Shown in pieces: positions 531 through 30,904 of a DNA stretch of 64,000 bases. The DNA lies in IMG/VR virus record IMGVR_UViG_3300046820_001270, positions 160,001 through 224,000 of that record; one strand, 5' to 3'. Positions within the stretch are counted from its first letter, which is position 1. The number at the start of each line of letters is the position of its first letter. The position numbers and the translations under genes were made by a program. The stretch is from a virus (Duplodnaviria; Caudoviricetes). The notes under the pieces were generated by a model that saw nothing but the letters and a program-made list of their open reading frames with translations, searched no databases and was not told the origin of the DNA.

Positions 531-641
531 ATGGGAACAAAGGCAAATAAACCACGTGCTATGAGAAGTAGAAGAAGTGGTATTAAATCATTAAACATAG
601 TTAAGAAAAATTTAGAAATTCTAAAGAAACTTAAGGGGTAA
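531..641 (+). CDS. Small basic protein (36 aa, MGTKANKPRAMRSRRSG...)
   Basis: Not in the ORF track; fills the gap exactly, and its TAA overlaps the next ATG (TAATG). Confidence 0.6.
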   Translation: MGTKANKPRAMRSRRSGIKSLNIVKKNLEILKKLKG

Positions 642-1285
642 TGAAAATATTAATTTCGGAAGAACAATTAAAACGTATTATATCCGAACAACCCGAATCA
701 AGGTTTGCACCAAGAGGTATGTCCAATAAAGAACATATGGATGCTCTTAATAGAACCACTTTAAATCCAAATTTGGATGCTGACGATTATGCGGATATAG
801 TGTCAGGTTTAATTGATGTTATACCTGGTATTGGTAATGGGATATCGGGAGCAATTGATATAACACATGGTATTACCTATATTGTTAGATATTATTATGC
901 AAAAACTATAGAAGAGAAAGTTGAATTGGCCGTAATGGGACTTATTACGTTAGGTATGACATTTATCCCTGTTGGGGGTAATGCAACAAACATATTAGCG
1001 AGAAGTGAAATTAAAACGTTATTAAAGAAAACTCCATATGAAGTACGTTTGATGATGAAAAATATGGGACTTATAAAAAGTGCGGGATTCCAATTATCAA
1101 AACAAGCGTGGAAATATTCTTTCTTAATTGCACTCGTAAAAATATTCAGAGGTCAATTAGATAGTGTAATTGGAGATGTTTCGAGAACTTTAACGTCTAT
1201 CTCCAACAAATCTAAGGAACTAAGTCCTATCTTACAAAACTATATGAAAACTATAAACGAACTTAAAAATATTAACAAGGCGTAA
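641..1285 (+). CDS. Leader-bearing putative virion protein with a pre-toxin-like hydrophobic helical hairpin
   Basis: MKILISEEQLKRIISEQ leader; LIDVIPGIGNGISGAID...LGMTFIPVGG motif. Confidence 0.7.
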   Translation: MKILISEEQLKRIISEQPESRFAPRGMSNKEHMDALNRTTLNPNLDADDYADIVSGLIDVIPGIGNGISGAIDITHGITYIVRYYYAKTIEEKVELAVMGLITLGMTFIPVGGNATNILARSEIKTLLKKTPYEVRLMMKNMGLIKSAGFQLSKQAWKYSFLIALVKIFRGQLDSVIGDVSRTLTSISNKSKELSPILQNYMKTINELKNINKA

Positions 1286-3192
1286 TGAAAATACTTTTAA
1301 GTGAAGAACAATATGGTAAATTGATTGAAGCGAATCAAACTTATTCATTTCCTGAAAATAAAGGGGATCTTGATGCGTATATAAGAAGTTTTACCGAGAA
1401 AAACACTAAAAAAGAATTACAAGTAAAACATAATCCAATTTATTATAGATTATGGGCGGGTGGATTGTTAGATAAGTATTATCCCCCTAAAAAACCAATT
1501 ACCAAAAATGAAATAAAAAAATACATTAAGGATAATAATATTACATTAAAATCAAGTGATATAAAAGGGGATACAAGATCATTATCTCAAATGAATGGAA
1601 CTTATTACCGAGCTGCGTGGAGTAATGGATGGTTAGATGATTTATTTCCAAAAGAAAGTGATAAAAAAATATTTAGTAGAATAAAAAAATATATCAAGGA
1701 TAATGATTTAACAAGATCAACATTTAGGTTCAAAAAGTATTATCATATTGCTATCTCAAAAAATTGGATGGATTTGTTATTTCCACCAACAATTGGAACT
1801 AAAGATGAATTTATTAAAACTTGTAAAAAATCACATAAAGGAAGAGATTATGACTATACGGACATAGATTTTAAAGGTACTGGATATGAAATAACAATTA
1901 TTTGTCATAGAAAAGATAATGAGGGAAATGAACATGGACCATTTACTGTGGGGGCTGGAAAACATAAGTTAGGTGATGGAGAATGTAAAAAATGTTTATG
2001 TCAAGACAGAACAGAAAATTTCATTAAAAATGCAATTGAAAAACACGGGAATAAGTATGGTTATGATAAAGTCGATTTTTGTGATCCAAAGTATCAAGTA
2101 AAAGATACCTCAGGAAAAAATAAACATAGATGGTATTTTCCAATATATTGTGAAACACATAAAACTTATTTTAGACAAAGAACGGATATACATTTAACTC
2201 CACATGGATGCCCTTATTGTGCGGAATCACAAGGTGAATCGGCAATTAAAAAAACATTAGATGAGATGGGGTTAAAATATTCGGCGTGGGAAAGTTTTGA
2301 TTTTTGTACCAATCAAGGTTATAAAGGAAGAAAATGTACTGATTTAGAATTTGATGTTTATATCCCCGATATGAAAACTATTATTGAATACGACGGAGGA
2401 GGACACTTTGGACCAATTGATTATTTTGGAGGACAAGATACTTTTACACAAGTTGTACATTACGATAATTTGAAAAATGAATTTTGTGATGGACAATATA
2501 ATATACGTGGAACTCATATTGAAAAACTAATACGTATATCAGATAAAACCCCATTAAACGAAATACCAAGTGAAGTTAAACGTTTAATTATGGGTAAAAG
2601 AAAAGGTTTGTTATTATCAAAAAATTACCCATCCGCTGGTTGGAATGGAGGTGGTATAAACGAATCCAAATTATCGTTTGAAAATGTCTTAACCGAAAAG
2701 TTAAGAGATATGGTGTCAATTCCAATCTATCACCATACCACAGAGGAACGTGCTTTGGGTATTATGAATAGTAATATGTTAAAAGGATCTAAACAATATG
2801 AGGAGGTTTTAAATTTAGATAGAACATTAAAACAATCCAAACATAAAACAATGGTTTCCTTTACTCGTGATAAGAACTTTATACCAGATGGGTCTATTGG
2901 TAATTCTGGGGATGGTCCTCGTATTAAACCTGATATGTTGAACGTAATCTTTGTTGCAGATAGAAGTCGTCTTAAATCACGTTATAGGGTGGTTCCTTTT
3001 GATTATGGAACAATTGCAAATAAAGCTTGGATGGATCCAGTTCCACGTAGTCGTAAAAACCCTGAGGTAGAAGAAAGAGTATTAACTGATCGAATATATC
3101 CATTAAGACAATACCTTACAAATATTATTTATACAGGTCAAGATCTTGAGATACAAAAGAAGATAGATGAGTATCTATCGGGTATTAAATAA
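1285..3192 (+). CDS. Leader + homing-endonuclease-like region (Y..A...GWLD repeats, Zn-ribbon repeats, PD-(D/E)XK/Vsr-like nuclease) + C-terminal ADP-ribosyltransferase-like domain
   Basis: HG..YDY...IIC...HG.F..H..G..C..C repeats; FDVYIPDMKTIIEYDGGGHF; C-terminal YHHT / VSFTR / EVEER. Confidence 0.65.
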   Translation: MKILLSEEQYGKLIEANQTYSFPENKGDLDAYIRSFTEKNTKKELQVKHNPIYYRLWAGGLLDKYYPPKKPITKNEIKKYIKDNNITLKSSDIKGDTRSLSQMNGTYYRAAWSNGWLDDLFPKESDKKIFSRIKKYIKDNDLTRSTFRFKKYYHIAISKNWMDLLFPPTIGTKDEFIKTCKKSHKGRDYDYTDIDFKGTGYEITIICHRKDNEGNEHGPFTVGAGKHKLGDGECKKCLCQDRTENFIKNAIEKHGNKYGYDKVDFCDPKYQVKDTSGKNKHRWYFPIYCETHKTYFRQRTDIHLTPHGCPYCAESQGESAIKKTLDEMGLKYSAWESFDFCTNQGYKGRKCTDLEFDVYIPDMKTIIEYDGGGHFGPIDYFGGQDTFTQVVHYDNLKNEFCDGQYNIRGTHIEKLIRISDKTPLNEIPSEVKRLIMGKRKGLLLSKNYPSAGWNGGGINESKLSFENVLTEKLRDMVSIPIYHHTTEERALGIMNSNMLKGSKQYEEVLNLDRTLKQSKHKTMVSFTRDKNFIPDGSIGNSGDGPRIKPDMLNVIFVADRSRLKSRYRVVPFDYGTIANKAWMDPVPRSRKNPEVEERVLTDRIYPLRQYLTNIIYTGQDLEIQKKIDEYLSGIK

Positions 3193-3197
3193 ATTAT

Positions 3198-3869
3198 ATG
3201 ATAATTCATAGACCAGCACATACAAGATCTAATCCAAAAAATAATTGGATTAATTCGTATAGAACATTTAGTTTTCCTCCGTATTTTGATCCGAAGTATA
3301 TTAACTTTAGTTATTTACAAACAATCAATGACGATAGAGTTCAACCAAAAGGTCAAGTCGCAATGCACGAACATAAGAATATGGAAATATTTGGTTATGT
3401 TGTTGAAGGTGTTTGTAGGCACACGGATAGTCACGGAAACATATTAGATATACCAGCGGGAGCCGTCCAAAGAATGTCTTGCGGTTCAGGTATAAGACAC
3501 ACTGAGGGAAACACAACAGACACCCCAAATCGTTATTTACAACTATGGATAAGACCTAATGTAAAAGATACAGAACCAATACACGAATGGTATCAATTCA
3601 CAAGAGAAGATAAACTAAATAAGTTTTGCGATATAACGGAGAAATTACCCATAAAACAGGACGCAAGATTGTTGGCAGGTATATTCACAGAAAACTTTAG
3701 TTTTGACCTTAATTCGTCTCGTAAGTACTACCTGTACGTAGTATCAGGAATGTCTACCTTAAACGACACACCATTAATAGAAGGAGATGGTTTAAGCTTC
3801 ACAGAGGAAGATAAAATCAATATAATTACGGATACGGAAATCGAAATCATTTTGTTTGATTTAGGGTAA
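3198..3869 (+). CDS. Pirin family protein (YhhW/quercetin 2,3-dioxygenase-like)
   Basis: SYRTFSF..YFDP, INDDRV, HEHKNMEI, HTDSHGN, VQRMSCGSGIRHTE, LQLWIRP. Confidence 0.9.
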   Translation: MIIHRPAHTRSNPKNNWINSYRTFSFPPYFDPKYINFSYLQTINDDRVQPKGQVAMHEHKNMEIFGYVVEGVCRHTDSHGNILDIPAGAVQRMSCGSGIRHTEGNTTDTPNRYLQLWIRPNVKDTEPIHEWYQFTREDKLNKFCDITEKLPIKQDARLLAGIFTENFSFDLNSSRKYYLYVVSGMSTLNDTPLIEGDGLSFTEEDKINIITDTEIEIILFDLG

Positions 3870-3877
3870 TATTTATA
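3870..3877 (+). promoter_or_regulatory. TATTTATA motif, putative phage late promoter (representative copy)
   Basis: Same 8-mer on the sense strand about 4-14 nt before ATG at 6105, 6636, 17923, 25067, 25521, 27692 and 50958, and 35 nt before it at 60572; reverse copies precede minus-strand genes at 11306, 15028, 19658, 31735 and 37923. Confidence 0.7.
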
Positions 3878-3881
3878 TCTA

Positions 3882-5330
3882 ATGAAGCTTCAGGTAACAG
3901 AATCACAATTAAAACTTATTGAACAACAACAGTTAAATGAACTGAAGTGGTTGGCTAATGTTCAATCACACATTGTTAAAATGGACGTTCCGTTGACACC
4001 GTCGTTGGTAAACTATATTTGGGGAAGTCAAAGAGTTACAACATTCCACGTCGGAGATGTTAACGGTATTAATGAGATTGGTGCAATGGTTGGAACGAGA
4101 AAATCTTTATCTACATTTAGATTTATGGATAAGGAATTGGTTAAAAATATGAAAGGGGTTCAAACCGAAGGTGGAATTATCTATCAAATTGTTGGAGATT
4201 TACAATTCGACTCACCAACAGATGTTATGAGTGCTCCTGATGAGACAGGTAGAAGATGGGTAAACATTAGAAGTTTCCATAATGACTTTCAAAATAAAGT
4301 CGAACTTGAATATGTAAAGTATGAGAAATTTGGAGATATGGATGAACTATCAAAATCCCCAAAAAATTTAATAGAATATTATAGACTAATGGACCAATTG
4401 GTTCGAGAAAATGCAAAAGAAATTCGTGAATATTTTACCGACATTAAAAAGAACAGAGGTGGAAGGGAAAGTTTATGGAATGAAACTGTTGTGAATAATA
4501 TTGAGGTTAAGGACATATTATGGAAAGAGGATATTGTTGCATTTTTAGATAATTGGGAAACAAAAGAACAAAGGTTAAGTGTACTTGACAAAATTGGTAT
4601 AAAATTGAGTTCTATATCCACAGGAACCGTTTATTTGGCTGATAGAGGTGGTACGTTTGGTTTTAGAGATATTAATCCAGTTAAATGGGTTGAACAAAGA
4701 GGAGGTCTAACTAATTTTAAAAAATACGTTAAAAAATTCCATGTAGATAGTGAACCAAAGAGAATACGGATCAATGAGGATAAACCAAACCCTAATAACC
4801 CACCATTTATAAAATATGGTCAGGGTTATGTTTTAATTACACCCGACAAACCTATAGATAAAACTGCGTGTGTTATTTTCGGTGGTTGGAATACTACAGA
4901 TGGTAATCACAAACATTTAGTAAAATTTATTCCTGAAAATTTACAATATAAAAAAACAATATTAATTACAGTACCTGGTGCAAGTATGGGTGATTTAAAA
5001 AGGATGTTAGGTAATACAAAAATTAAATCTATAATAGGTTTTGAGGAAGGTGGAATGAACGCATGTAAGTATGCTGGTGAATATGATGTAGTTGGGTTAA
5101 TTAACCCCGTTTTAAATAAAGATTCACAAAGATATCATATTAACGATAAAAGAGTTTTCATGTTATATGACCCAAATAAGGGAATTTTAAATGGTAATAA
5201 AATTGAACGAGGAGATAAATACCAAAAAGAATTTGCTTCAATTATGACGGGTAATGCTATACCACTTAAAGATTATAAAAGTGAAAATATGTTAACTTAT
5301 TTCCTTAATAAGTTTCAAAATAATATTTAA
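3882..5330 (+). CDS. Leader-bearing two-domain protein: ART-like N-domain + alpha/beta-hydrolase-like C-domain
   Basis: MKLQVTESQLKLIEQ leader; TFHV / SLSTF / LWNET; CVIFGG and IIGFEEGG elbow-like motif. Confidence 0.5.
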   Translation: MKLQVTESQLKLIEQQQLNELKWLANVQSHIVKMDVPLTPSLVNYIWGSQRVTTFHVGDVNGINEIGAMVGTRKSLSTFRFMDKELVKNMKGVQTEGGIIYQIVGDLQFDSPTDVMSAPDETGRRWVNIRSFHNDFQNKVELEYVKYEKFGDMDELSKSPKNLIEYYRLMDQLVRENAKEIREYFTDIKKNRGGRESLWNETVVNNIEVKDILWKEDIVAFLDNWETKEQRLSVLDKIGIKLSSISTGTVYLADRGGTFGFRDINPVKWVEQRGGLTNFKKYVKKFHVDSEPKRIRINEDKPNPNNPPFIKYGQGYVLITPDKPIDKTACVIFGGWNTTDGNHKHLVKFIPENLQYKKTILITVPGASMGDLKRMLGNTKIKSIIGFEEGGMNACKYAGEYDVVGLINPVLNKDSQRYHINDKRVFMLYDPNKGILNGNKIERGDKYQKEFASIMTGNAIPLKDYKSENMLTYFLNKFQNNI

Positions 5331-5882
5331 TTAAATTGTAATTCCCTTTTTTTGATTGTATTTGATCATTGATTTAATATTTTTAGAATAATTACATCCG
5401 GGACAATAATCAGTATCCAATTTTTTATAATATCCATCAACGTTTAATGAACTATAACCAAGTTCGTCTTGCATTAATTTGTAATCTTTAACTGAATCAA
5501 CCCAATTGTTATATGTTGCATGATTTCTATTAGTACCTGTTGCAACATTTTTTCTTTGTTTTGGTTGTTTCATCCCAAACAAATTATTATTCTCTTTGAA
5601 CACATTACTTTTAAAATGTTCGCTTTCCCAAAAAGCTTGTGCTAGTGCAATATTTGGGTACTTAATACCTTGTTTAATAATCTCAGCTTTTAAATTTTCT
5701 AAACTAAATGGTTTAGGTTCTGTTTTTTCGGATGTTTTTGGTTTATTAGATTTAGTTAAACGATCATAAGCCGATTTACCCATATCATAAACCGATCTAC
5801 CAAGATTAACAGCATTTAAACCATCTATTTGTTCATTAATTAACCTATCAAGATCACTTTTTTTAATTCTAATAATTTTCAT
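5331..5882 (-). CDS. Leader-bearing glucosaminidase (FlgJ/GH73-like peptidoglycan hydrolase)
   Basis: ALAQAFWES, NNLFGMK, ATYNNWVDSVKDY. Confidence 0.8.
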   Translation of the reverse strand: MKIIRIKKSDLDRLINEQIDGLNAVNLGRSVYDMGKSAYDRLTKSNKPKTSEKTEPKPFSLENLKAEIIKQGIKYPNIALAQAFWESEHFKSNVFKENNNLFGMKQPKQRKNVATGTNRNHATYNNWVDSVKDYKLMQDELGYSSLNVDGYYKKLDTDYCPGCNYSKNIKSMIKYNQKKGITI

Positions 5883-5925
5883 ATGAAACTATATACTTTT
5901 TTAATATTTTAAGTTAAAATGATAC

Positions 5926-5992
5926 CCAGTATATACTAGTATTATTTATTACTAGATTAATAGCTAGATTCTAGTACTAGAATAAATACTGG
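5926..5992. repeat. CTAG-rich inverted-repeat element between divergent genes
   Basis: CCAGTAT(5926-5932)/ATACTGG(5986-5992); perfect palindrome ATTCTAGTACTAGAAT 5968-5983; five CTAG in 45 bp. Confidence 0.8.
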
Positions 5993-6125
5993 ATAAAATA
6001 GAAAAGTTGAGATGTTTTAATTGAAAAAGATGTACACCTTAAAGTACATGAACCCATGTTAATTGATCTTAAGGGTAAAATTGATACTAATCTCTAAATC
6101 CAAGTATTTATATAAAAACACACAA

Positions 6126-6587
6126 ATGGGAAAGAAATTTAAAATTACAGAAGACCAACTAAAAAGATTGGTTGAAAACAAAAGTAGAATTCAAGAACAA
6201 AATGAAGGATATATGGATGAAGAACTTGACGGACCTTCAAGAGAAGAATATTTTGCTAAACACGGAGATGATAATATGGGTTGGACAGGTAGTTCAAACA
6301 AAACATATCAAGATTTACCTGATGGTGACTATGATGATGAAACGTATGATGATTTTGATACATTACATAATGCTTATCCTAATTTTCATTCACATTATTC
6401 AGGTAAAGGTGAGGTAGATCGAGCAAGAGGAATGTTTGGTACATATAAAAACCTTCGTGGTCCATTACGTATAAAGAAAAGAAGATCTATGGATGAGATG
6501 GGCGTGAAAGAAGATGGTATGATGAACGAATCGATTAAACAATATAAAACCGAATTTGAGAGGTTTTTAAAGAAACCAAAACAATAG
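6126..6587 (+). CDS. Leader-bearing acidic hypothetical protein (start revised from 6063)
   Basis: TATTTATA at 6105 precedes ATG 6126; MGKKFKITEDQLKRLVE. Confidence 0.75.
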   Translation: MGKKFKITEDQLKRLVENKSRIQEQNEGYMDEELDGPSREEYFAKHGDDNMGWTGSSNKTYQDLPDGDYDDETYDDFDTLHNAYPNFHSHYSGKGEVDRARGMFGTYKNLRGPLRIKKRRSMDEMGVKEDGMMNESIKQYKTEFERFLKKPKQ

Positions 6588-6593
6588 TTAATG

Positions 6594-6619
6594 AACCCTT
6601 CAGAAATGAGGGGTTTTTT
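6594..6619 (+). terminator. Intrinsic terminator
   Basis: AACCCTTCA-GAAA-TGAGGGGTT followed by a T-tract. Confidence 0.8.
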
Positions 6620-6647
6620 ATTATATCTATAGGGATATTTATATACA

Positions 6648-8825
6648 ATGAACTTTAACAACATTTTTGAAGAATTACTACTTGAGTTAAGTGGACAGGA
6701 GATATACCAAAAGTATTATTCTAAAATACCATATGAGACTTTTTTAGATATTGTAATGGCTGACCCGAAAACAAACATAAGTGGATCAGGTGAATTACTA
6801 TCAATAGGAAAATATTCAAAATTATTATTATCATTTTATCAAAAGGGTAGTTTAAGGGATGAGGATTTAGCAAAGGCTGAAGAATATTTGGAATGTGTTT
6901 ATTCCCATAATATCGCATTAGACGTAAGTAAATTAAAAAATTTAGGGGACTTATATCAAGTAGTTCAAAAATATCTTATTTCGGACACACAAGATCTTAA
7001 TGAAATTTTAAAGGCACTTGTTATCGATCAAGATTACAAATTACTACATCAAGGTAAAGATTGGGATTTTTATCAACCTCTTACCGAAAAAGGATCATCA
7101 TATTTAGGATTTGCTACCGAGTGGTGTACCGCTTGGGGTCAGTATTGTCTTAATAAAAAATATAGAGAAAGGCAAAACCATTTTGAAAGACATAACGGAC
7201 AAGGACCTTTATTCATTATGATGAGTAAAATTAATCCATTAAACAAATATCAATTTCATTTTGAAACAAATCAATTTATGGATCCAAAGGACAGTAGAAT
7301 TAATTTTACTGAATTTTGGCCAAATAAAGATGAAATTAAAAATTATTTCTTCCCATCATTAGTTAGAGAAACATCTGAGGAAGAAGTAAAAAATGAATTA
7401 CAAAGAATTTCAATTTTACCTGATGCAGATGGTATGGTAATATTAAAGAAATCAATCGGAACTGTTAACAATCCTTTAGTGGAAGCAATCATAAATGAAG
7501 ATGAAGACGCATTAGAAGATTTGGTTGATGGTGAAGAAAGAGATGGTTCTGTTTATGTTTATAGTGGTAGACTTATTATACAAGTTGACGGGATACCAGG
7601 AGACGATGCTGAGGGTGTTGAAAGATCAATAGATCAATATAGGGGAGAGTCGAATAATGGTTGGGAGTGGGTTCACAGTGATATTGAAAATAGATATTAC
7701 GACGTAAGTGATTATGAAGATGATTTTGAAAAAATTTTTAAATCTTATTACGATAATCACAAAATAATATTACAACAAGAATTGGGTATTAATTCATATG
7801 AAATTTTTAAAGAAGATTATTTTGACAATTATCTTGGTGATAATCATATTGTAGATACTTTTGTAGATGATATAACTGATTTATCATATGCAAGTTATGA
7901 AGCCGAAAATGATAGAGAGGCGGATGCGATTGAAAAGTATTTGTCTTTTGGTTCTTCAGATGAACTTAATTTTTCAATTGTTTTTTTAGTACAATTTTTA
8001 ATTAAAAGAAATATTGTTGGACTTGGTGGGAATTATGATTGGACAATACAAGACATGGTTAGTAGTTATATTAGTCATTATAAATTAACAACTGAAATAG
8101 ATGAACCGGTATATAATTATGAGACAACATATCCAAAATATGGAGACAATAATTATATTACGAAAAGTACTGATGAACATTTCGGTAAATTATTAGATAA
8201 CCCTGAAACAAATCATCAATGTGTAGAATTAAGAAAACAATTAAATTATATTATTAAAACTTTATTTAAAGGATCAAACAAATTTGAAAATGATCATGTA
8301 AAAATTAAGTTAAAATCAAATAAAATTGATTGTGAAAAGGGGACAGTTAATATTGAATTTGTAAATAAAGATACGGGTCAGGTTTTCTACGATAATAATG
8401 TTAAAGTTGAAAATTTACCGAGATATGCAACTAACTACGAATTGAATTTAAAAGAAAATAAAAAAATGAAATTAGTTATAACAGAATCTCAATTAGAAAA
8501 TTTAAAGAAGTCGGTTGGTAAAGGAGAAGATATAGGTGAAAGAAGTCGTAGTTTTGCGTTTACAAGAAAGAAAAGAAAATTTAGTAAACCTGAAAGAATG
8601 TCTAATCCACTTAGATATAAAGAAAAGGATAGATTGGAAGAGGAAGGTGAAGAACATAATTTTAATAAACCGTTAACACCTGAACAAATAAAAAGTATTG
8701 AACAAATAAACAAAGACGCTAAGTTCCTTACTTGTAGAAACTGTAGACATAAATTTACACAAACGACACATAAAAAGAAGAAATCTTTACCTATTTGTCC
8801 AACTTGCGGAACACATAATAAATAA
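6648..8825 (+). CDS. Large hypothetical protein with a conserved phage 'WC' domain, an internal second leader and a C-terminal Zn ribbon
   Basis: TEWCTAWG...KYQFHFETNQFMD; in-frame MKLVITESQLENL at 8466; CRNC..CPTC. Confidence 0.7.
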   Translation: MNFNNIFEELLLELSGQEIYQKYYSKIPYETFLDIVMADPKTNISGSGELLSIGKYSKLLLSFYQKGSLRDEDLAKAEEYLECVYSHNIALDVSKLKNLGDLYQVVQKYLISDTQDLNEILKALVIDQDYKLLHQGKDWDFYQPLTEKGSSYLGFATEWCTAWGQYCLNKKYRERQNHFERHNGQGPLFIMMSKINPLNKYQFHFETNQFMDPKDSRINFTEFWPNKDEIKNYFFPSLVRETSEEEVKNELQRISILPDADGMVILKKSIGTVNNPLVEAIINEDEDALEDLVDGEERDGSVYVYSGRLIIQVDGIPGDDAEGVERSIDQYRGESNNGWEWVHSDIENRYYDVSDYEDDFEKIFKSYYDNHKIILQQELGINSYEIFKEDYFDNYLGDNHIVDTFVDDITDLSYASYEAENDREADAIEKYLSFGSSDELNFSIVFLVQFLIKRNIVGLGGNYDWTIQDMVSSYISHYKLTTEIDEPVYNYETTYPKYGDNNYITKSTDEHFGKLLDNPETNHQCVELRKQLNYIIKTLFKGSNKFENDHVKIKLKSNKIDCEKGTVNIEFVNKDTGQVFYDNNVKVENLPRYATNYELNLKENKKMKLVITESQLENLKKSVGKGEDIGERSRSFAFTRKKRKFSKPERMSNPLRYKEKDRLEEEGEEHNFNKPLTPEQIKSIEQINKDAKFLTCRNCRHKFTQTTHKKKKSLPICPTCGTHNK

Positions 8826-8840
8826 TATTATTAAGATTAA

Positions 8841-9971
8841 CTACAAACACTTAGCCCCTAAATTCCATTGTGTTCCTACAACGGGACTATATACTCTCAT
8901 AGTAACGGATGACATACTTTCATCTTTTGTTATGGTGATACCAACAGAACCATTATGATAAGGATTTAATTCCCAAAAATCGGGATCGTCGGTTGTGGTT
9001 TGTTTAATTGTGGTATTATCAGTAAAGGTATATAATGGTGTAGTTTGTAAAAACTCATCAATAAGTTTCATATTATTTGTTCCTTCACGCATAAATCGTT
9101 CATGATCAATAACATGTCTAAATAAACTCCATAAATCACTTACTCTCTTTCCTTCGAACATATCCAAAGCGTCGTATTTATCTAAACGAACAAAATTATT
9201 TGGAAAGTAATTAGGGATTTTACCTCCGTAACCATAAACTAAAGTTGTCGCAATACATGCGTTGACGAGTGGATCCGATGCTTGGTTGGAAACAAGTCCA
9301 GTGCTTTGAGAAAAAGAACCCGCATTAACCACTAACATATCCGCCATTGAATGTGGAGAAAATACTATTTTAAATTTAGTACCATTTGGTAATTTACTAA
9401 CATCAATTGTTTTTGTGTAACCAACAAAATCATCTTCTTTTTTGGCAACACCACCCTCCATATTTTCAGTAAAATTACAGATTGTTTCTATCGTTCTACT
9501 ACCAATAATTTGTAATGATAATGTAACGTATTGATTTTTTTTGTACTCTATCCAATCCTTACCCTTTTTCGGGTCCCAAGAAGGTCCTTGAACTCCTTTG
9601 TCTATTTTATTGATTTTAACATTTTCCGGTACACTTGATAACATAAATTTTTCTACCTCATCGGCCCTTAAACGTGATAAATCACCAACCTTCATTCCCG
9701 CTGGAGGTGGTACCGCTGATTCGGAGGATTCTACATTAATAATAAATTGTTGATTATTTGGGTAATCTTTAATTTCAGTATTTATTTTATTCATTGCGTC
9801 ATTAATTGATTTAGTGTTTGTCAATTTATATTGACCACTTGCAAATGAATTACTAATGTTGTAAACTTGTGACGGTTTAGTTTCAGTATAACTAGATAAT
9901 ACTTTTTGTTCATTAATCACCACTTTAGTGATTAAATCTTCAATCTGTTTTTCTAATAATATAATTTTCAT
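8841..9971 (-). CDS. Leader-bearing OmpA-C/MotB-like domain protein
   Basis: FASGQYKL...SSES...DLSRLRADEV...NQYV pattern; paralog of the neighbouring gene. Confidence 0.55.
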   Translation of the reverse strand: MKIILLEKQIEDLITKVVINEQKVLSSYTETKPSQVYNISNSFASGQYKLTNTKSINDAMNKINTEIKDYPNNQQFIINVESSESAVPPPAGMKVGDLSRLRADEVEKFMLSSVPENVKINKIDKGVQGPSWDPKKGKDWIEYKKNQYVTLSLQIIGSRTIETICNFTENMEGGVAKKEDDFVGYTKTIDVSKLPNGTKFKIVFSPHSMADMLVVNAGSFSQSTGLVSNQASDPLVNACIATTLVYGYGGKIPNYFPNNFVRLDKYDALDMFEGKRVSDLWSLFRHVIDHERFMREGTNNMKLIDEFLQTTPLYTFTDNTTIKQTTTDDPDFWELNPYHNGSVGITITKDESMSSVTMRVYSPVVGTQWNLGAKCL

Positions 9972-9991
9972 TGTTATTTCTAAATTGTTTT

Positions 9992-11299: not shown

Positions 11300-11359
11300 G
11301 TTATATATAAATACTTTAAAAAGATAAGTTGTATTTATTAGTATATAAATAGAAAAATT

Positions 11360-12228: not shown

Positions 12229-12231
12229 AAT

Positions 12232-19643: not shown

Positions 19644-19750
19644 TAAAATTGTTCTATTATAAATAATAATCAAAAACCTTATAAAAAAGAAATTTGATGG
19701 ACTTTTGTTTTCCACATTTATTTGTTATATTATTAAAAAATTAATTATAC

Positions 19751-21004: not shown

Positions 21005-21016
21005 AATAAAAAAAAT

Positions 21017-21577: not shown

Positions 21578-21580
21578 AAA

Positions 21581-22399: not shown

Positions 22400-23147
22400 T
22401 GCATATTGTGTATGTACCGTACCGGGTACTTACCAATCATACGTAAGACATTGGGATTCATTTAAAGAAACCGGAAGAGAATTAACATTCGTATCGGATA
22501 TTAGTTCCGATGGATCTTTTGATGTTGGTTTTTTATATAATGAAACCAATATTAGAATGAGTCTTAATTTTTATAAAGATGTTGATAAAAGAAATTTTTG
22601 GAACTCGGTTGGTAATAGAAACATTATATGGTTTTATGCACATTTTAGAATGTTAAATTATTACATACATAATCCACATTACGATAACTATTGGTTTTTC
22701 GATGATGACGTTAGAATGGATGATTGGAACGCGTTTTTTAATGGTGTTGATAACGACGATTCAGATTTTATGTCTTACTTTTGTTTTAAAAATAAAAATG
22801 TAGAATCTCAGTTATCAATTCCAAAAATAGATAGTAATACACATTCTTGTGATGCGTGGTTTTTAAGATTTCCAGGTCCAGGTGATGTAGTACCTGAAGA
22901 TGTTAAAGAAATATTTGGATCATTTTTTCCCGTTGTAAAATATTCAAACAGAGCAATGAAAAAATTATTAGATTTAAATAACGAAGGATTAAGTGGATAC
23001 TCAGAAGGATTTGTACCTACAATGTTAAATAAACATGGAATGAAAATAAACACATTGATTAAATCAGATGACACGTCAGATTTTTTTGATGTTAACGAAG
23101 TTAATATTAAACATAAAAATATAAAAATAGAATGGTCATGGATATAA
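22386..23147 (+). CDS. Putative glycosyltransferase
   Basis: YWFFDDDV DxD motif; lies in a GT cluster. Confidence 0.55.
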   Translation: MSLNNAYCVCTVPGTYQSYVRHWDSFKETGRELTFVSDISSDGSFDVGFLYNETNIRMSLNFYKDVDKRNFWNSVGNRNIIWFYAHFRMLNYYIHNPHYDNYWFFDDDVRMDDWNAFFNGVDNDDSDFMSYFCFKNKNVESQLSIPKIDSNTHSCDAWFLRFPGPGDVVPEDVKEIFGSFFPVVKYSNRAMKKLLDLNNEGLSGYSEGFVPTMLNKHGMKINTLIKSDDTSDFFDVNEVNIKHKNIKIEWSWI

Positions 23148-23935
23148 AAAAACCAGTAATAGTAACAGCACTATATGATATCGGTAGAGATAAATGGGAA
23201 AAATTTACATCGTCTTATGGTGGTTATATTCATATGATGGAAAGAACATTATCAATTGATAATGAGATGGTTATCTATACACAAGAAAAATTTAAAGATG
23301 AGATCATTGAACTTAGAAAAAAGTATGATGTTAATTTAAATAAAACGGTTTTAATTATTCAAGAATTAGAAGAGTTGGATGCGTATAAATTGTATAATGA
23401 AAAATTAAACGATTTAATGTTCTCCGATGAATTTGTTAAGAAGGTTTCTTTTCCTGACGTTCCCGAAATGTGTAAACCATTATATAATGTAATCATGTTC
23501 AATAAAATGTTTTGGTTAAAAGATACAGTCGATAAAAAATATTTTGATGGGGATTTGATCATTTGGGCAGATGCGGGTGGTTTAAGAGAACCAATGGAAT
23601 TGTATAAAGGGAAGGTTTGGCCAAGTATTACTAAGATAAATGAAATTGAAGGAGAAAAAATTATTTTCTTTAGTCATCATGAAGATTTTAATGTTGACGA
23701 CAAAGAATTCTTATCATTATCTCAAATTAGAAATATACAAGGTACGGCTTTCTTTGTACCAACAAATATGGTGAATTATTTGACAGAAGAGTTTTGTAAA
23801 ACAATTGACGAATCTATTGATAACAAATATATTGGTAGTGATGAAAAAGTTTTTGACATTACTTATGTAAGAGATAAATCCAAATATCATTTGGTTAAAT
23901 GTACATGGAGAGAATACTTTAAAATATTTGAATAA
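23132..23935 (+). CDS. HtrL/YibB family protein
   Basis: IVTALYDIGR, YNVIMFNK, IWADAG. Confidence 0.75.
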   Translation: MVMDIKKPVIVTALYDIGRDKWEKFTSSYGGYIHMMERTLSIDNEMVIYTQEKFKDEIIELRKKYDVNLNKTVLIIQELEELDAYKLYNEKLNDLMFSDEFVKKVSFPDVPEMCKPLYNVIMFNKMFWLKDTVDKKYFDGDLIIWADAGGLREPMELYKGKVWPSITKINEIEGEKIIFFSHHEDFNVDDKEFLSLSQIRNIQGTAFFVPTNMVNYLTEEFCKTIDESIDNKYIGSDEKVFDITYVRDKSKYHLVKCTWREYFKIFE

Positions 23936-25532: not shown

Positions 25533-27677
25533 ATGAAGTTGGGCTTAACCGATAAACAATACAACAATTTATTAAATTTAATTTTAGAACAGGCGGAACC
25601 CCCTGCGTCAGAACCTGAAGCTGGTACATCAAGTAAACAGTCTGGAGGTCAAGGATATCCTCAAGTGGGTAAATGGGAAAGTGGTGTTACAAGAGGTCCC
25701 GGTAATCAAGTTGGGGTAACTAAATGGGCTGATGTGGTTGGAGCGAAATTGAATAGAGGTAAAGCTAATCCATTAAAAGAAATTAAGTATACAAAGAGAA
25801 GTCTTTTACGTTTAATGAGTGAACAGACACCTATATCCGATAAGGATACTCCGGGAGTTAAAGTGGGAGATGTAAACACGAGTGGGTTTTTGGGATCAGA
25901 ACAACCATCAGAACCCATTCCTGCAATACAAAAATATCCAAATCAGTGTCAATATTATGAGTATGGTAGATGTCCATTTGAGATGAAAAACAGGGAAGGG
26001 GAAATATATTTTTGGCATTATCATAGTGTTGCACCTGTTGGATTTTGGACTTACGTTGGTGAATTACACGGAGAGGTACCTGGTTTAGGGGATTATAAAC
26101 TTGGGAACTATAATTCAAATGATTTTGTCGGTAATAAAAAAGACATGATGGATTATTATGAAAATGAACTTGATTGGTGGTTGAAAGAAAATATGGATAC
26201 TACCTTAGAACAGTGGAAAAGATATCAAAATAGATTAAGTAAAAGTGGTAAAGAAGTTCCTAAAGGATTTGATCCTGATAGATATGACGAATATTTAGCT
26301 AAAATCGGCCCAATACAACAACAAATCGATACTATAGAAAAAAAACATAAATCTAATTGGAATCCATTAAAACCAAATTTTGGACCCGGAGGATATTGGG
26401 ACAAAAAAGACTTAAATGTTTTAAATAATCTTAAACAACAACTTACAAATATAACAAATGAATATTCCAATAATGAATTTAGTTATGGTATCACTAATGA
26501 AGAGTTAGAACAATATAATCAAAGGAAAAAAGAAATTACAGTTGAATATGAAAAAGAGGTTAATGAAATAAAGGGAAAATATGGATCATATGATCTTGAT
26601 CGTGCGGACAATACAAGAACATACAATCAAACCGCATATGCCGAACTTCCACCAGAAAATAATACACTAAAACAACAAAGAGATCAAGAATTATACCAAT
26701 TGCAACAAAAATATCAAAAAAATTTAATGGAACTTGATGTGGTATTTGGTAAAGATGACTTTGGTAAAGATGTTAGTATGTTTGGTCAATCATTTGATAA
26801 ATTTTGGGATAAATGGGGAGGGGCCATACAGACAGTAGGTAATATTGCAGTCATTGCACTTTCGGGTGGTATTGCGGGTATGGTTGAGGGGGTGGTAGGG
26901 GCCGTTGGGTTTACGTTCACCTCTGGAGTACTTAGAGCTATAGCACCTTATGCGGTGGATGCGACTTTTAATGCATTAGTCGGTACATATCAAGCTTCAA
27001 GAGGTAAAAATGAAAATGCGGTCATATCTTTTTTATGTGCAATGATACCGTTTATTTCATATGGAAGAAATGTTGGTAAGGTATCTATTGAAGTTGCTGA
27101 AGGGTTATCCAAAAAAGTTGCTGTAGGTAAATTTGACACTAAAGAAAGTATGGAAATTTTTATAAAGGCATTAACACCTGAAGAAAGATATATTTTTAGA
27201 GATGTTATGACATTACCAAAAGAATCAATTAAAGCTAATTTTGATAAGGCAGTTAAAGAACTTAGTAAAAAAATGGCAGGAAATGGTGTGAAGGTGGCTA
27301 AAGCGGGAACTGCAGTATGGTTACCTAAAATTTTGAAACAATTAGGATTTGAAGCCGTACCACCTACAGCGGCAATGATAACTAACGGGTTTTTAAAAGT
27401 GATTAAAGATAGTGGACATGCGTATACCCAAGATGAACTAATAAGAATTAAACAAACATTAAAGAATATAGAAAAGGAGGGGTTAGCTAAACAATTAATG
27501 ATTTTTGGTGAAGCTAGTAAAATATTAAAAGAGACAAAAGTATCATCTAAGAATAAACCCGATTTAGTGAACTTATTAGGGGCAATCCAAAGTAAACGTC
27601 AAAAAGAAATACCTGAACAAGAAGCTGAAAAGTTTTTTACTGAAATGACCGAAATAATGAAAAAAGGTAAAAATTAA
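25533..27677 (+). CDS. Large leader-bearing putative virion/ejection protein
   Basis: MKLGLTDKQYNNLLNLILEQ; Gly/Ala hydrophobic hairpin region ending CAMIPF. Confidence 0.65.
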   Translation: MKLGLTDKQYNNLLNLILEQAEPPASEPEAGTSSKQSGGQGYPQVGKWESGVTRGPGNQVGVTKWADVVGAKLNRGKANPLKEIKYTKRSLLRLMSEQTPISDKDTPGVKVGDVNTSGFLGSEQPSEPIPAIQKYPNQCQYYEYGRCPFEMKNREGEIYFWHYHSVAPVGFWTYVGELHGEVPGLGDYKLGNYNSNDFVGNKKDMMDYYENELDWWLKENMDTTLEQWKRYQNRLSKSGKEVPKGFDPDRYDEYLAKIGPIQQQIDTIEKKHKSNWNPLKPNFGPGGYWDKKDLNVLNNLKQQLTNITNEYSNNEFSYGITNEELEQYNQRKKEITVEYEKEVNEIKGKYGSYDLDRADNTRTYNQTAYAELPPENNTLKQQRDQELYQLQQKYQKNLMELDVVFGKDDFGKDVSMFGQSFDKFWDKWGGAIQTVGNIAVIALSGGIAGMVEGVVGAVGFTFTSGVLRAIAPYAVDATFNALVGTYQASRGKNENAVISFLCAMIPFISYGRNVGKVSIEVAEGLSKKVAVGKFDTKESMEIFIKALTPEERYIFRDVMTLPKESIKANFDKAVKELSKKMAGNGVKVAKAGTAVWLPKILKQLGFEAVPPTAAMITNGFLKVIKDSGHAYTQDELIRIKQTLKNIEKEGLAKQLMIFGEASKILKETKVSSKNKPDLVNLLGAIQSKRQKEIPEQEAEKFFTEMTEIMKKGKN

Positions 27678-27702: not shown

Positions 27703-29751
27703 ATGAAGAATAGTAAAAATTTATTGACCGAGATATTAAGAGTACAAGAATTAATGGGGGTCAAACAACTAATAAGTGAAGAAGGAGGTAAATTTGATCC
27801 AGTGGTGGAATTTTTTAAATCTATGTTGAAAATATCGGCAAAGGATGTAAAATTCACAAAAATGTTTGATGAGGCTTTTGAACATATTAAATATAGAAAT
27901 TCTGAACTTTTTGAAAAACTTAAAAAATCATTGAACTCTACTGAAATTTCAGTTAATGGATTAAAAGGTTTAAGGAATTTATCATCTATTAAATCTTCTG
28001 AATTAAAGGCCATGTTAGAGGAATTACAAAGTGAGATGATTTCGTACGTTTTTACCAAATACACCGATGATTTTATTGAACTAGGTGATGATATAATTGA
28101 AGCTTCTCTTGTTGGTAAACCTCAGGCTAAAAGAGTATATGATTTTATGGTAGATTTGGCCGAAAAAGGTCAAGCAGAAGAATTACAGATTGCCATCCAA
28201 AAACAAAGAGGTAATTTCCCATCTTATGTTTTGGATCATATTCAAAATACTAAATTCATACAAAAGGCGGAAGATGCTGTTGTTGATACAATAGGTAAGA
28301 CAGGTGATGAAATTGTAGATGACGTTAGTGATGAGATGATTGATCAGATTATAGACGCTGGTGATAAATCTCTATCAAGGGTTAAAGAATTTTTTGGATC
28401 GGCTTGGGCTAAAATTGTATACGGTTGGGATAAAATAGGTGATTGGACATTATTATTAAGAAAATATAGTGGATTAAATGGTCCATTAGAAGGTGTTTTC
28501 ACTTCTTTTCCGTTTAAACAAGTTGCCAATGCACCTGGACTTTCTATCATAGCTAAAAAAATGCATCTTACTTATGATAAATTAATGGTAGACCCAATTC
28601 AAATTAAAAAAGATTTAGATGAAATTTTTAAAAGAATTTTAGTTAAACTTGAATCGGGAACGAACACTGACATTACAAATGAACAATTAGAATTAACAGC
28701 AAAATTTTCTCAATTTTTAGCAAAAAGAAATGAGTCACATAAAATAATTTTTGATGAATGGATGATTTTGTGGAAAGAAGATGATAGATTAAAAAGGTTA
28801 TTTAACCCAACACAAAAAAGACCAACAGGTCAATTAGATGCCAATAAAAACCCAATATTTTATGACGTTCCAGAACCTTTATATTTTAAAAATGGATGGA
28901 GTGATCCTAAGTTTATACAAATGATGGAAGCATTTGAAACTGCTAAAGGAAACAATGTTGGTGCAATAAAACAAACATATAATAAAATATATGGATCAAT
29001 ACAATTAGCAAAAAATTTAATAAAAATAATACCACATAGAAGACCTACAATAAAAAACTTTATGAATTATGGTGCAAATGTTTTGGAATTGATTCAAAGA
29101 TTAATAGGTGCATTAGTGGTTTATACTCCAAATACATATAAAGAAGTAGCACATAATGTTAGAGTTTTAGGTAAAGGTAGATGGTTTGGAGTTGGTCTTG
29201 GACAAAAAATAGTGATGTCAACTATAGATATACCATTAATATTAGCCTCTTATAGAACTATTGGTTCATTCATTCAGGATTATGTTAATAGTAGAAGATT
29301 AGCTCAAACAAAACCAGGACAACCATTACCTAAAGAGATGAAATGGTGGTTATTGAGTGATGAAGAATGGTCTATAATGACTAGTGGTCCAGATGGGGAT
29401 GCATTCAAGACAACTATATCATTTTTTGGTGAAAGTTTTAAAAAATTTAGTATAACAAACACAAAAGAATTAACAAATTCAGTTCTTCCATGGACAATAG
29501 CGGGGTGGGCGTATTTTGAAAAATTTAAAGGGGATTGGAAAGTAAGTGATTTCTACGATCAATTCAATTCTGTTGAGTCAAATAGTAAAGAAAATCTGAA
29601 CAAAGTAAATACAGAGGCAGTAAAAGATACAAATCTTAACAAAATAGTAAAAGATAATAATATACAAACATACGAAGAAACAAGTAATAAAATTGATACT
29701 GCACTTAAAACTAGACCTAAATTAGTGCCGACTGAAGAGGCAAATTATTAA
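27703..29751 (+). CDS. Large putative virion protein
   Basis: LLTEILRVQELMG...LISEE leader variant; follows TATTTATA. Confidence 0.65.
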   Translation: MKNSKNLLTEILRVQELMGVKQLISEEGGKFDPVVEFFKSMLKISAKDVKFTKMFDEAFEHIKYRNSELFEKLKKSLNSTEISVNGLKGLRNLSSIKSSELKAMLEELQSEMISYVFTKYTDDFIELGDDIIEASLVGKPQAKRVYDFMVDLAEKGQAEELQIAIQKQRGNFPSYVLDHIQNTKFIQKAEDAVVDTIGKTGDEIVDDVSDEMIDQIIDAGDKSLSRVKEFFGSAWAKIVYGWDKIGDWTLLLRKYSGLNGPLEGVFTSFPFKQVANAPGLSIIAKKMHLTYDKLMVDPIQIKKDLDEIFKRILVKLESGTNTDITNEQLELTAKFSQFLAKRNESHKIIFDEWMILWKEDDRLKRLFNPTQKRPTGQLDANKNPIFYDVPEPLYFKNGWSDPKFIQMMEAFETAKGNNVGAIKQTYNKIYGSIQLAKNLIKIIPHRRPTIKNFMNYGANVLELIQRLIGALVVYTPNTYKEVAHNVRVLGKGRWFGVGLGQKIVMSTIDIPLILASYRTIGSFIQDYVNSRRLAQTKPGQPLPKEMKWWLLSDEEWSIMTSGPDGDAFKTTISFFGESFKKFSITNTKELTNSVLPWTIAGWAYFEKFKGDWKVSDFYDQFNSVESNSKENLNKVNTEAVKDTNLNKIVKDNNIQTYEETSNKIDTALKTRPKLVPTEEANY

Positions 29752-29752
29752 T

Positions 29753-30904
29753 ATGGAAAATGCAATAGATAGAAAAGCAAATAGACGAGCCCTTTATAAT
29801 AAAGTTTTTACACAGTTTACTAATAAGAAAAATATTACATTTACTTTTGAAGAATGGGAAAATTTATTTTTTCAAAATGAAGAAAACTGTGTTACGGGTA
29901 AGGCATCTCCTGCTGATGGAAATGGTTATGTAAAACAAGGAAATTTATTTGACATATTAACACATGTAAATAAAAGAGGAAAAATAATTAAAGACGAGTT
30001 TTTAAAAAATGGTAGTTCAGAATATAATTCATTGAGTGACAAAGTTACATTTGTAAAAATATACGCTTGTTTTGATTTTGATTGGACAACCACAAGTACC
30101 ACAAAATATTGTGGTAATGCTGAAAAATCTAAAACAGATACTAAAACTAACACTAACACTAGTACTAGCACAATAAATTTACCTGACTATATTGGAGCGT
30201 TTAAAACTAAAGAACGTGAAATATTAAATATTATAATGAGTGGTGAAAACGGTATACAAAAATTAAAAATTAATGCCGAACATTTACCTTCAGGAATGAA
30301 TAGTTTTTTCTTAGAACAATCATCGGATAAATATACTTTTGATGTAAAATTACCTTCAGATGTCTCCTCAAAGATTGTAGATTTACTTAAAGATAAAAAA
30401 TCAACTATAAAATTTGCAAATGACTTACAATCGTTTGATTATGATTTAGCGGGACTAAGAAAAGGTACCGCAACTAAAGTTAAGTATGTTGAGAATAAAA
30501 AAACAGACAATAAAAAAAAGGTACAAGACGATGATGACGATGATGATACTAATGATGGAAACGTTATTATAAACAAGAAAGTTTATAACTATCCTGATGT
30601 TAACGTTAAAGACGAACCACCTATAGAGGGTAATAGAGATTGCGACGATTATCCATTCAAACCTGGATGTATAAATGATGATATTGGAGATCTTAATCTA
30701 ATGTTTTTTAACGATCGTAGAGGTAACGTTTTTGGTACTCGTTTATTAAAAAAATTAAATTCAATGGGACTAATTAGTCCTAACGATAAAAATCCAGAAA
30801 TTACTCCAGAGATATTCAATCAAGTTATGAGTAAATTCAAGAAAAATGTAATTAAAGAATCGGTAAAAAAAGTTTTAAAAGAATATACCAATAAGAAAAA
30901 ATAA
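29753..30904 (+). CDS. Hypothetical protein with Thr/Asn and Asp tracts and a C-terminal IKESVKKVLKE motif
   Basis: Coupled ORF. Confidence 0.7.
   Translation: MENAIDRKANRRALYNKVFTQFTNKKNITFTFEEWENLFFQNEENCVTGKASPADGNGYVKQGNLFDILTHVNKRGKIIKDEFLKNGSSEYNSLSDKVTFVKIYACFDFDWTTTSTTKYCGNAEKSKTDTKTNTNTSTSTINLPDYIGAFKTKEREILNIIMSGENGIQKLKINAEHLPSGMNSFFLEQSSDKYTFDVKLPSDVSSKIVDLLKDKKSTIKFANDLQSFDYDLAGLRKGTATKVKYVENKKTDNKKKVQDDDDDDDTNDGNVIINKKVYNYPDVNVKDEPPIEGNRDCDDYPFKPGCINDDIGDLNLMFFNDRRGNVFGTRLLKKLNSMGLISPNDKNPEITPEIFNQVMSKFKKNVIKESVKKVLKEYTNKKK

Follow-up and report, generated by a model that had tools for sequence, protein, structure and literature searches.

Ten open reading frames (ORFs) in a 64,000-nucleotide stretch of DNA from a virus of the Caudoviricetes (IMG/VR record IMGVR_UViG_3300046820_001270, positions 160,001 to 224,000; this whole stretch is referred to here as the window) encode unrelated proteins that begin with a common leader peptide. 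All ten lie between positions 641 and 27677 and start with MK(x1-3)[ILV][ILVF][ST]E[SDEN]Q[LIVY]x[KR][LIM][IV], after which come [ILV]-x-E and, in most cases, Q. This class A leader is 17 to 26 residues long. A shared N-terminal motif had been predicted for the ORFs at 641, 1285, 3882, 5882 (-), 6126, 9971 (-), 11299 (-), 14718 (-), 18200 and 25533 (named here by the position of their first nucleotide) and was confirmed in all ten. The analyses described below indicated that the leader is a real tag, which is found at protein starts or module boundaries, is portable and is under selection at the protein level. By analogy with the capsid-targeting sequence (CTS) of phage T4, it is probably a portable N-terminal address peptide that binds the prohead core and is cut after [ILV]-x-E by a gp21-family protease, the passengers being ejected with the DNA.

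The window is AT-rich (~31% GC) and corresponds approximately to positions 193,711 to 257,710 of JGI metagenome locus 3300043419, Ga0451736_0000008 (L002; 334,429 bp). The source is a 334-kb uncultured T4-like lake phage, of a clade whose hosts are probably Bacteroidota of fresh water. A protease-based search yielded 440 related IMG/VR contigs. Comparisons were made with a 105-kb fragment (G001), whose conserved genes have ~93% protein identity to those of the window; with a complete relative of 335,630 bp (G003), taken whole; and with a more distant relative of 310,691 bp (G004), which has a protease and scaffold of the same type. L002 was used for the head module and G003 for genome-wide counts. 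A megablast search with positions 1 to 20000 of the window found no match among cultured phages, and the best matches of the capsid protein were from a 484-kb uncultured phage, Rhodothermus phage RM378 and Flavobacterium phage 'immuto', at 38 to 47% identity over partial length. Judged by sequence, there is no close relative among cultured phages.

Leader genes of the window and reality of the motif

ORF 641 (641 to 1285, plus strand) encodes 214 amino acids (aa) with the leader MKILISEEQLKRIISE followed by Q; its passenger family is unassigned and no orthologue was present in G001 or G003. ORF 1285 (1285 to 3192, plus strand; 635 aa; MKILLSEEQYGKLIE followed by A) joins a nuclease-like region (phrog_559, E 1e-24) to a C-terminal domain (aa 463 to 635) with a predicted ADP-ribosyltransferase (ART) fold. 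In ORF 3882 (3882 to 5330, plus strand; 482 aa; MKLQVTESQLKLIE followed by Q), the sequence TATTTATA lies 4 nt upstream, and the passenger may end in an alpha/beta-hydrolase-like domain, a weak lead from the ESM Atlas (0.78). The glucosaminidase encoded by ORF 5882 (5331 to 5882, minus strand; 183 aa; PF01832, E 1.7e-14) carries a class A variant, MKIIRIKKSDLDRLINE followed by Q. For ORF 6126 (6126 to 6587, plus strand; 153 aa; MGKKFKITEDQLKRLVE followed by N), it is the motif-bearing ATG, not an upstream TTG at 6063, that comes after a promoter-like TATTTATA. Two adjacent minus-strand genes are ORF 9971 (8841 to 9971; 376 aa; MKIILLEKQIEDLITKVVINE followed by Q), with a weak OmpA-like match below the cut-off (PF00691, E 0.026), and ORF 11299 (9992 to 11299; 435 aa; MKKVILTEDQIKRMVDKLVVNE followed by Q), whose passenger is unassigned to a family but has a weak OmpA-like lead in the ESM Atlas (0.79). 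ORF 14718 (14377 to 14718, minus strand; 113 aa) has the leader MKKYIFTESQIKKIID, a site at QINE followed by Q, and a peptidoglycan (PG)-binding-like passenger. The remaining genes are ORF 18200 (18200 to 18526, plus strand; 108 aa; MKKTIITENQVKNVLDKVLME followed by E) and ORF 25533 (25533 to 27677, plus strand; 714 aa), in which MKLGLTDKQYNNLLNLILE followed by Q precedes a Pro/Glu/Ala-rich linker.

Pfam and PHROGs returned nothing for the passengers of ORFs 641, 3882, 6126, 11299 and 25533. Among the passenger domains named in the original prediction, glucosaminidase, nuclease (ORF 1285), NTP_transf_2 (ORF 59791; 24.2 bits against a 21-bit cut-off) and, by AlphaFold2 and Foldseek, the ART fold of the ORF 1285 C terminus were upheld, while PG_binding_1 (ORF 14718), flavodoxin/FMN_red (ORF 18526) and OmpA (ORF 9971) gave sub-threshold matches only. 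A pirin/quercetinase-like cupin gene without a leader (3198 to 3869, plus strand) is inserted among the leader genes and is missing from G001 and G003.

The frequency of the motif was examined with a strict nine-residue regular expression, [ST][ED][EDSNK]Q[LIVYF][KGNE][KRNLD][LIVM][ILVM]. Seven matches were detected in the six-frame translation of the window (~128,000 residues), each starting from residue 6 to 8 of an ORF; 300 shuffles gave a mean of 0.017 matches and a maximum of 1. With a hidden Markov model (HMM) of the ten N termini, the members scored 16 to 27 bits and everything else scored 3.2 bits or less, save one internal copy at 8466 (12.5 bits). When the window, G001 and G003 were combined, 37 of 561 N termini reached 6 bits or more, compared with none of 289 internal control segments (maximum, 4.6 bits). 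Leader matches numbered 14 in G001, ~16 in G003 and 7 in G004. In G003 the leader genes form a cluster 40 to 80 kb upstream of the head module, an arrangement also seen in the window; a few others lie beside capsid and baseplate genes and near the genome end.

Synonymous codons varied among the leader copies (TCG or AGT for Ser; ACA, ACG or ACT for Thr). As the copies encode the same residues by different codons, conservation acts at the level of the protein. This bears on the idea that the similarity is a by-product without tag function, left by recombination-cassette ancestry of gene starts or by selection on the 5' end of the mRNA for translation. Lys codons rich in A and T are common after ATG in such genomes and leader genes are shuffled between relatives, both of which would suit a by-product; however, residues are kept while codons differ, conservation spans 17 to 26 residues and stops at an invariant Glu, the motif is also found within ORFs, and the leader profile had no match in LR756508.1 or in Flavobacterium phage immuto, two further T4-like genomes that are also large and AT-rich (644 kb in total). 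We find an origin as a by-product barely credible. The profile also had no match in RB43, a T4-related coliphage of the Straboviridae, and when a leader peptide and a three-leader protein were used as tblastn queries, the tag was not found in any cultured phage, the only hits being chance Gordonia matches (E of at least 0.2). A literature search found no published description of the motif.

Portability, tag classes and internal copies

In G001 and G003, a free-standing gene encodes the domain that makes up the last 173 residues of ORF 1285. At the fusion junction before the ART domain (2650 to 2700, plus strand), ORF 1285 reads ...GGGINE/SKLSFENVLTE/KLRDMV and retains two [ILV]xE sites; the free-standing gene has its own leader, MKLQDILLE, at this point. 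Forty database homologues of the domain were examined, and the same passenger was found behind differing tags: the class B tag MKLQDILLE, a minimal MKLLE, the class C tag MNLQENINRIKQVMGLEE, and the class A tags MKILISESQYKTLNE and MKIIVRESQFLKLNE. The Glu at the boundary of tag and passenger was an invariant column of the alignment, with L or I three residues earlier in 19 of 19 sequences. The AlphaFold2 model of this domain, the passenger of ORF 1285 and of g3_48155, had a predicted local distance difference test (pLDDT) value of 81, and the top Foldseek match was DarT (E 2.6e-4, probability 1.0, TM 0.52), followed by Tpt1/KptA and the pertussis toxin S1 subunit. The conserved alignment columns YHHT, SFTR and EERV fit motifs of the H/Y...S-x-T/R...E-x-E type; the match to Pfam Tox-ART-HYD1 reached an E value of only 0.014. 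On the basis of this model and its matches, the passenger is predicted to have an ADP-ribosyltransferase fold.

Class B tags have nine residues, MKL[LMIF][DQ][IL][ILV]xE, and gave 13 N-terminal and no internal matches in the window, G001 and G003. Within the window this class was limited to ORF 18526 (18526 to 19287, plus strand), in which MKLIQLIEE precedes a flavodoxin/FMN_red-like protein (match below the cut-off). The class C pattern, LQExIxRIKxxMG, resembles the C terminus of the scaffold of the phage, ...NPQFSRIKEMMRKIK (...FSRIKEMM), and is the tag of the ART orthologue P0128; its regular expression gave three matches, all terminal, which are too few for statistics. ORF 27703 (27703 to 29751, plus strand; MKNSKNLLTEILRVQELMGVKQLISE followed by E) has an N terminus, LLTEILRVQELMG...LISE, that is similar both to class C and to the scaffold C terminus, and its leader is possibly of class C. 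Shorter variants of the leader had been proposed at 6648, 18526, 24087 (-), 27703, 59791 and 63638. From their sequences, these appear to be a mixture of two other tag classes and unsupported look-alikes: ORF 18526 is statistically real as class B and ORF 27703 looks like class C, but those at 6648, 59791, 63638 and 24087 had no statistical support of their own.

A second passenger family was provided by the glucosaminidase. Among 89 homologues, a class A leader was present in 43 and a class-B-like leader in 10, and 52 of the 53 leader-bearing proteins had [ILVM]xEQ in their first 45 residues. Distant homologues of cellular type carry a membrane or signal anchor in place of the leader. This exact correspondence of position, together with the PG-binding and OmpA-like passengers (sub-threshold matches), could suggest a non-Sec export or envelope-targeting signal for cell-wall enzymes, for example for lysis. 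Such a role is improbable: the leader is charged and amphipathic without the hydrophobic core of an h-region, the phage employs ordinary Sec and lipoprotein signals on other genes (39595 to 53430), and a GH19-type endolysin without a leader (11360 to 12202) already serves lysis. Furthermore, the ART-fold, nuclease and other passengers would have cytoplasmic targets, and an export signal is a poor fit to internal and C-terminal copies.

Differential conservation within one protein was observed for the PG-binding-like family of ORF 14718. Mean pairwise identity among 30 orthologues was 82.8% in the leader, 30.3% in the spacer, 60.1% at the site and 41.6% in the passenger, and the Glu of [ILV]xEQ was among only six invariant columns. 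In the AlphaFold2 model, the leader (pLDDT below 60) formed a helix detached from the passenger (pLDDT 87 to 91). The best-conserved part of the protein therefore lies outside its fold, as expected of a peptide that folds on a partner. Comparison of ORF 25533 with its G001 counterpart detected only the first 83 aa, comprising leader and linker, in common. Overall, the earlier claim of a portable tag on unrelated proteins was well supported by the presence of the same passengers behind different classes, by the invariant boundary Glu of [LI]-x-E and by a tag more conserved than its passengers.

A tag conserved better than its passengers would also suit a recognition sequence like those of ribosomally synthesized and post-translationally modified peptides, which are read by one modifying enzyme, such as a radical-SAM maturase, and the window does contain a radical-SAM gene (34485 to 35663, minus strand; PF04055). 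The passengers here, however, are large folded enzymes of 100 to 700 aa; no radical-SAM gene was present among the called genes of the leader arrays L106, L107 and L108 (12 to 22 kb each); and the radical-SAM gene of the window sits on the other strand in a glycosyltransferase/tRNA neighbourhood. We consider a recognition sequence of this type very improbable.

Leaders were also found inside proteins. ORF 6648 (6648 to 8825, plus strand; 725 aa) has a weak short variant, MNFNNIFEELLLE, at its N terminus and an internal class A leader at 8466 to 8516 (plus strand; approximately residue 607), which reads NLKE/NKKMKLVITESQLENLKK (NLKE/NKKMKLVITESQ). In G003, the module behind this internal leader stands alone as a leader gene with a GTG start. 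A search of 1.84 billion representative proteins with a 28-leader profile gave 56 matches (E of 0.001 or less), of which 54 were uncharacterised metagenomic proteins with the leader consensus MKK[VI]I[RK]LTES[DQE]LxR[IL]Vx[KR]VIxEQ. These 54 proteins contained 53 N-terminal and 44 internal or C-terminal copies, a ratio that does not represent a frequency since the scoring favours multi-copy proteins. Internal copies were often preceded by [LI][SN]E[NG]KK, where a cut would yield a new leader-like N terminus. Tandem N-terminal pairs of leaders (e.g., MKLILSESQYNRIFNNKKKKIVVTESQYDRLLNE) were observed in P0003, P0004, P0021, P0027, P0045, P0046 and P0250. On the ENA contigs L106 and L107, 10 to 13 neighbouring genes were all tag-initiated. 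P0044 had no relative in IMG/VR. The other two profile matches were discarded because they are unrelated and only look alike: P0001 is a repeat protein of 3967 aa (RIEATEKQLKRLFES), and P0043 has LTEEQVKALI repeats.

Head module, site signature and genomic setting

A T4-type head module lies directly past the right end of the window and comprises genes for the terminase, Portal_T4, proteins of 248 and 141 aa, a protease, a scaffold-like protein and the capsid protein, with Pfam matches to PF07230 (portal) and PF07068 (gp23-like capsid protein). Proteins of 466 and 545 aa are encoded upstream of the terminase. The candidate prohead protease is a Peptidase_S77 protein of the gp21 family (PF03420; 227 aa; L002 18267 to 18950), ~6.3 kb past the window end, and the same gene was found in G003 and G004 (72.5 and 77.6 bits). 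Its N terminus, MKILGPKELGTGILIE, contains GILIE, which is similar to the LIE-9 motif of T4 gp21 (PMC9026906). In PDB the capsid protein matched T4 gp23 (E 2e-11); its predicted propeptide aligns to gp23 residues 6 to 43 and ends ...SYLINE/AAVAD, the cut in T4 gp23 reportedly being at ...FLTE/AE (PMC9026906). The scaffold-like protein (426 aa; L002 19040 to 20320) is very acidic. Its alignment (A3) has invariant islands (DEVLKVFKAMKPEDGIVVKKDG..., EYIIKLD and YEIE) in a variable Asp/Glu-rich middle, which look like small binding modules. A search of the head-module proteins with the leader HMM found no convincing copy (best, 4.4 to 4.7 bits, ORF 61994), and a complex prediction for the scaffold (A3) and leader (A2) alignments gave a score of 0.01, which neither supports nor opposes an interaction. 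Also within the module, but on the opposite strand, is the gene of a ribosomal protein S21 homologue (PF01165; L002 17509 to 17700, minus strand; ~5.5 kb past the window end), flanked by the genes of the portal and the protease.

The leaders were compared with their own proteins for the predicted cleavage site. An [ILVM]-x-E with its Glu at +6 to +23 after the anchor Glu was present in 125 of 131 distinct leaders versus 24.8% of equal-sized background windows from the same proteins. The offsets peaked at +8/9 and +12/13. The P1' residue was Gln in 37% of leaders versus 2.8% of the background.

A sequence shared with the head genes was detected upstream of many leader genes. TATTTAT[AG] recurs across the window and the G003 genome. 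In G003, 61 of 423 ORFs have it in the 45 nt upstream, among them the terminase, portal, protease and scaffold genes and several very large tail-like genes. It precedes 10 of the 16 G003 leader genes (Fisher P = 8e-6) and also many class B genes. From its distribution, TATTTAT[AG] may be a late promoter; if so, the transcripts would be almost leaderless. The predicted link of the leader to a T4-type head was thus supported by the Peptidase_S77 protease, the portal, the scaffold, the gp23-like capsid protein with its T4-like propeptide and the upstream motif held in common with head and tail genes.

Leader genes also exhibited a high turnover. Median identity to G003 orthologues was 48.5% for leader genes and 83.5% for their neighbours (P = 0.006), four of the ten leader genes of the window had no G003 counterpart over the leader-bearing part, and several leader genes were present in one genome and missing from another among the window, G001 and G003. 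A similar behaviour is known from the polymorphic loci for internal proteins in T-even phages (PMC3012670, PMC9026906).

Other genes of the window were annotated. A probable glycosyltransferase-type block at 19751 to 23935 (plus strand) is occupied by other genes in G001 and G003, with a counterpart only for ORF 19751 (37% identity). A transfer-messenger RNA gene (31046 to 31443, minus strand; tag peptide DNVYNTMEIAGILATSKVAA) and an array of 11 tRNA genes (36924 to 39307, minus strand) lie in a local GC-rich stretch. The radical-SAM enzyme (E 5.7e-12), a GT2 glycosyltransferase and a metallophosphoesterase (34485 to 35663 and 31755 to 33186, minus strand) are beside the tRNA region, without a link to the leader genes. 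Approximately nine genes at 39595 to 53430 (plus strand) have canonical Sec or lipoprotein signal peptides (e.g., MKKLTLLMGLFLLMSLSSFAQ and MKKVSLVLFGLILLAGC), a run of exported phage proteins between the tRNA array and the head module. Next to a T4 Rnl1-type RNA ligase (PF09511) are genes for a cREC_REC-domain protein and for an AAA_33 kinase-like protein (54406 to 55476 and 53928 to 54416, minus strand), a group that may be a tRNA-repair set. Just upstream of the head module are a ClpB/AAA+ type 'ATP-dependent protease' (56608 to 58656, minus strand; phrog_4871, E 1e-242), an HSP20 small heat-shock protein and two KTSC-domain proteins (58799 to 59155 and 59224 to 59794, plus strand).

Proposed role and comparison with known systems

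If the leader is an address peptide of the CTS type, the tagged genes would be expressed late, together with the head genes. The conserved first 15 to 17 residues of the leader, a short basic stretch and then an N-capped amphipathic helix, would bind a component of the prohead core, and unrelated passengers would thereby be built into the prohead. The gp21-family protease would then cut after the Glu of [ILV]-x-E and free the passenger within the head; in fusions, the sites that flank internal leaders would split the polyprotein. At infection the passengers would exit with the DNA, the cell-wall enzymes acting on the envelope and the ART-fold protein, nuclease and other enzymes acting on host targets or defences.

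Several observations weigh against this scheme. Cleavage, encapsidation and ejection are all inferred by analogy with T4, and class A, roughly double the length of the T4 CTS, does not resemble it in sequence. The helix, and the Gln that is strongly conserved next to the Glu, could have a non-proteolytic role. In this Lys/Glu/Ile-rich proteome [ILV]xE is frequent (~25% of 18-residue windows), and single sites prove little. TATTTAT[AG] often ends 3 to 6 nt before the ATG, which makes the late-promoter reading uncertain. Several passengers bind or degrade the cell wall, and in most phages such proteins are parts of the tail or baseplate. Finally, a complete copy of the motif is present at the C-terminal end of the metagenomic proteins P0018, P0029, P0034, P0035, P0038 and P0040, which suits a general docking helix equally.

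A docking helix for another assembly, such as the tail or baseplate, an intracellular complex or a self-association network, would not be cut off by the prohead protease. The motif by itself forms an amphipathic helix of low pLDDT, complete copies lie at both ends of some proteins and in tandem, two of the G003 leader genes adjoin baseplate-like genes, and the action of several passengers on the cell wall is of a type often borne by tails, all of which a docking helix would accommodate. By itself, however, docking leaves unexplained the Glu of the boundary [LI]xE, which is invariant whichever tag class is present, and the further [LI]xE found just ahead of internal copies. Nor does it account for the interchange, on the same passenger, of class A with a tag class that resembles the C terminus of the scaffold. 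For these reasons we consider an uncleaved docking helix unlikely and favour an address peptide that is cut in the prohead.

Mullaney and Black reportedly worked on the T4 CTS in 1996. In T4 the CTS is found on IPI, IPII and IPIII, which are internal proteins, and is removed, like the Alt and gp24 propeptides, by gp21, the prohead protease (PMC9026906, PMC3012670, PMC5694885). Even foreign proteins are packed by the T4 CTS (MKTYQEFIAE); Alt, an ART, is packaged and has its termini cleaved; and T4 propeptides have 10 to 20 residues (PMC9026906, PMC5694885, PMC3012670). It has been suggested in a review that the CTS is possibly a general route by which T4-like phages load varied proteins (PMC9026906). 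Like the CTS, the leader described here is a short N-terminal peptide common to unrelated, fast-evolving proteins, with an M-K start and an [L/I]-x-E end, in a genome with genes for a protease of the gp21 family, a T4-type portal, a scaffold and a capsid protein similar to gp23; as with Alt, one passenger has a predicted ADP-ribosyltransferase fold. Class B (MKLLDIIxE, nine residues) shares the format of MKTYQEFIAE, but the format only. In contrast to the CTS, class A is 17 to 26 residues long and in two parts (MKKxIxLTE, then xQLKRxI...[ILV]xEQ), with no sequence homology. The number of tagged genes is ~25 to 30 per genome, compared with 3 or 4 in T4, and at least three interchangeable tag classes, copies inside fusion proteins and passengers that hydrolyse or bind peptidoglycan are further differences from T4.

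Propeptides of head and ejection proteins have been described in phiKZ, 201phi2-1 and SPN3US (Thomas et al.; PMC5694885, PMC10052503). In those jumbo phages, too, a diverged protease similar to gp21 cuts after Glu, internal or ejection proteins are numerous, N termini are conserved among diverged paralogues and propeptides have multiple sites. Their motif, however, is [S/A/G]-x-E or A-x-E, and the propeptides, which often exceed 100 residues, are each specific to one paralogue family, unlike a short tag on unrelated folds. Encapsulin cargo-loading peptides and the C-terminal coat-binding helices of scaffolds are similar in that a short peptide at a terminus is enough to bring unrelated cargo into an HK97-fold shell, and the resemblance of class C to the scaffold C terminus of the phage itself recalls the latter. 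Encapsulin tags, in contrast, are usually C-terminal, shell-binding and uncleaved, and class A has no similarity to any head protein of this phage.

Phages and conjugative elements inject polyvalent proteins (Iyer et al. 2017, cited in PMC7824862). These proteins are multi-domain conflict effectors, with ART domains and nucleases, delivered with DNA, and ORFs 1285 and 6648 and the metagenomic multi-leader proteins have a similar build; unlike polyvalent proteins, most effectors here are separate tagged genes, and the fusions retain a tag and flanking [LI]xE between modules. The internal core protein gp16 of phage T7 has a lytic transglycosylase domain, is capsid-borne and is ejected at infection. 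It is a precedent for the leader-tagged glucosaminidase, but gp16 itself, a large structural protein of the core, has no portable tag that is cleaved.

Taken together, these comparisons suggest that the finding is a variant of the known T4 CTS principle, in which the sequence and length of the tag, the scale, the interchangeable classes, the polyprotein use and the cell-wall passengers appear to be new. More tentatively, the leaders may belong to a modular multi-class addressing system that extends across a wide group of uncultured giant phages, with at least three interchangeable classes (A, the T4-like B and the scaffold-mimicking C), one invariant [LI]-x-E and use in polyproteins. The head would then be a programmable vehicle for 25 to 30 enzymes, including cell-wall hydrolases in which the tag has taken the place of a signal peptide.

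If the leader does address proteins to the head, it would mark, from the sequence alone, the DNA-injected proteins of abundant uncultured lake and marine giant phages and would provide a catalogue of candidate anti-defence and entry effectors, among them a DarT-like ART, nucleases, a glucosaminidase and many uncharacterised proteins. The leader would also offer a short portable peptide for loading foreign proteins into the capsids of Bacteroidota-infecting phages. For this group of phages, it would mean that the capsid-targeting trick that T4 uses for three or four proteins can expand to a genome-scale system of exchangeable cargo, with several tag classes and a polyprotein form.

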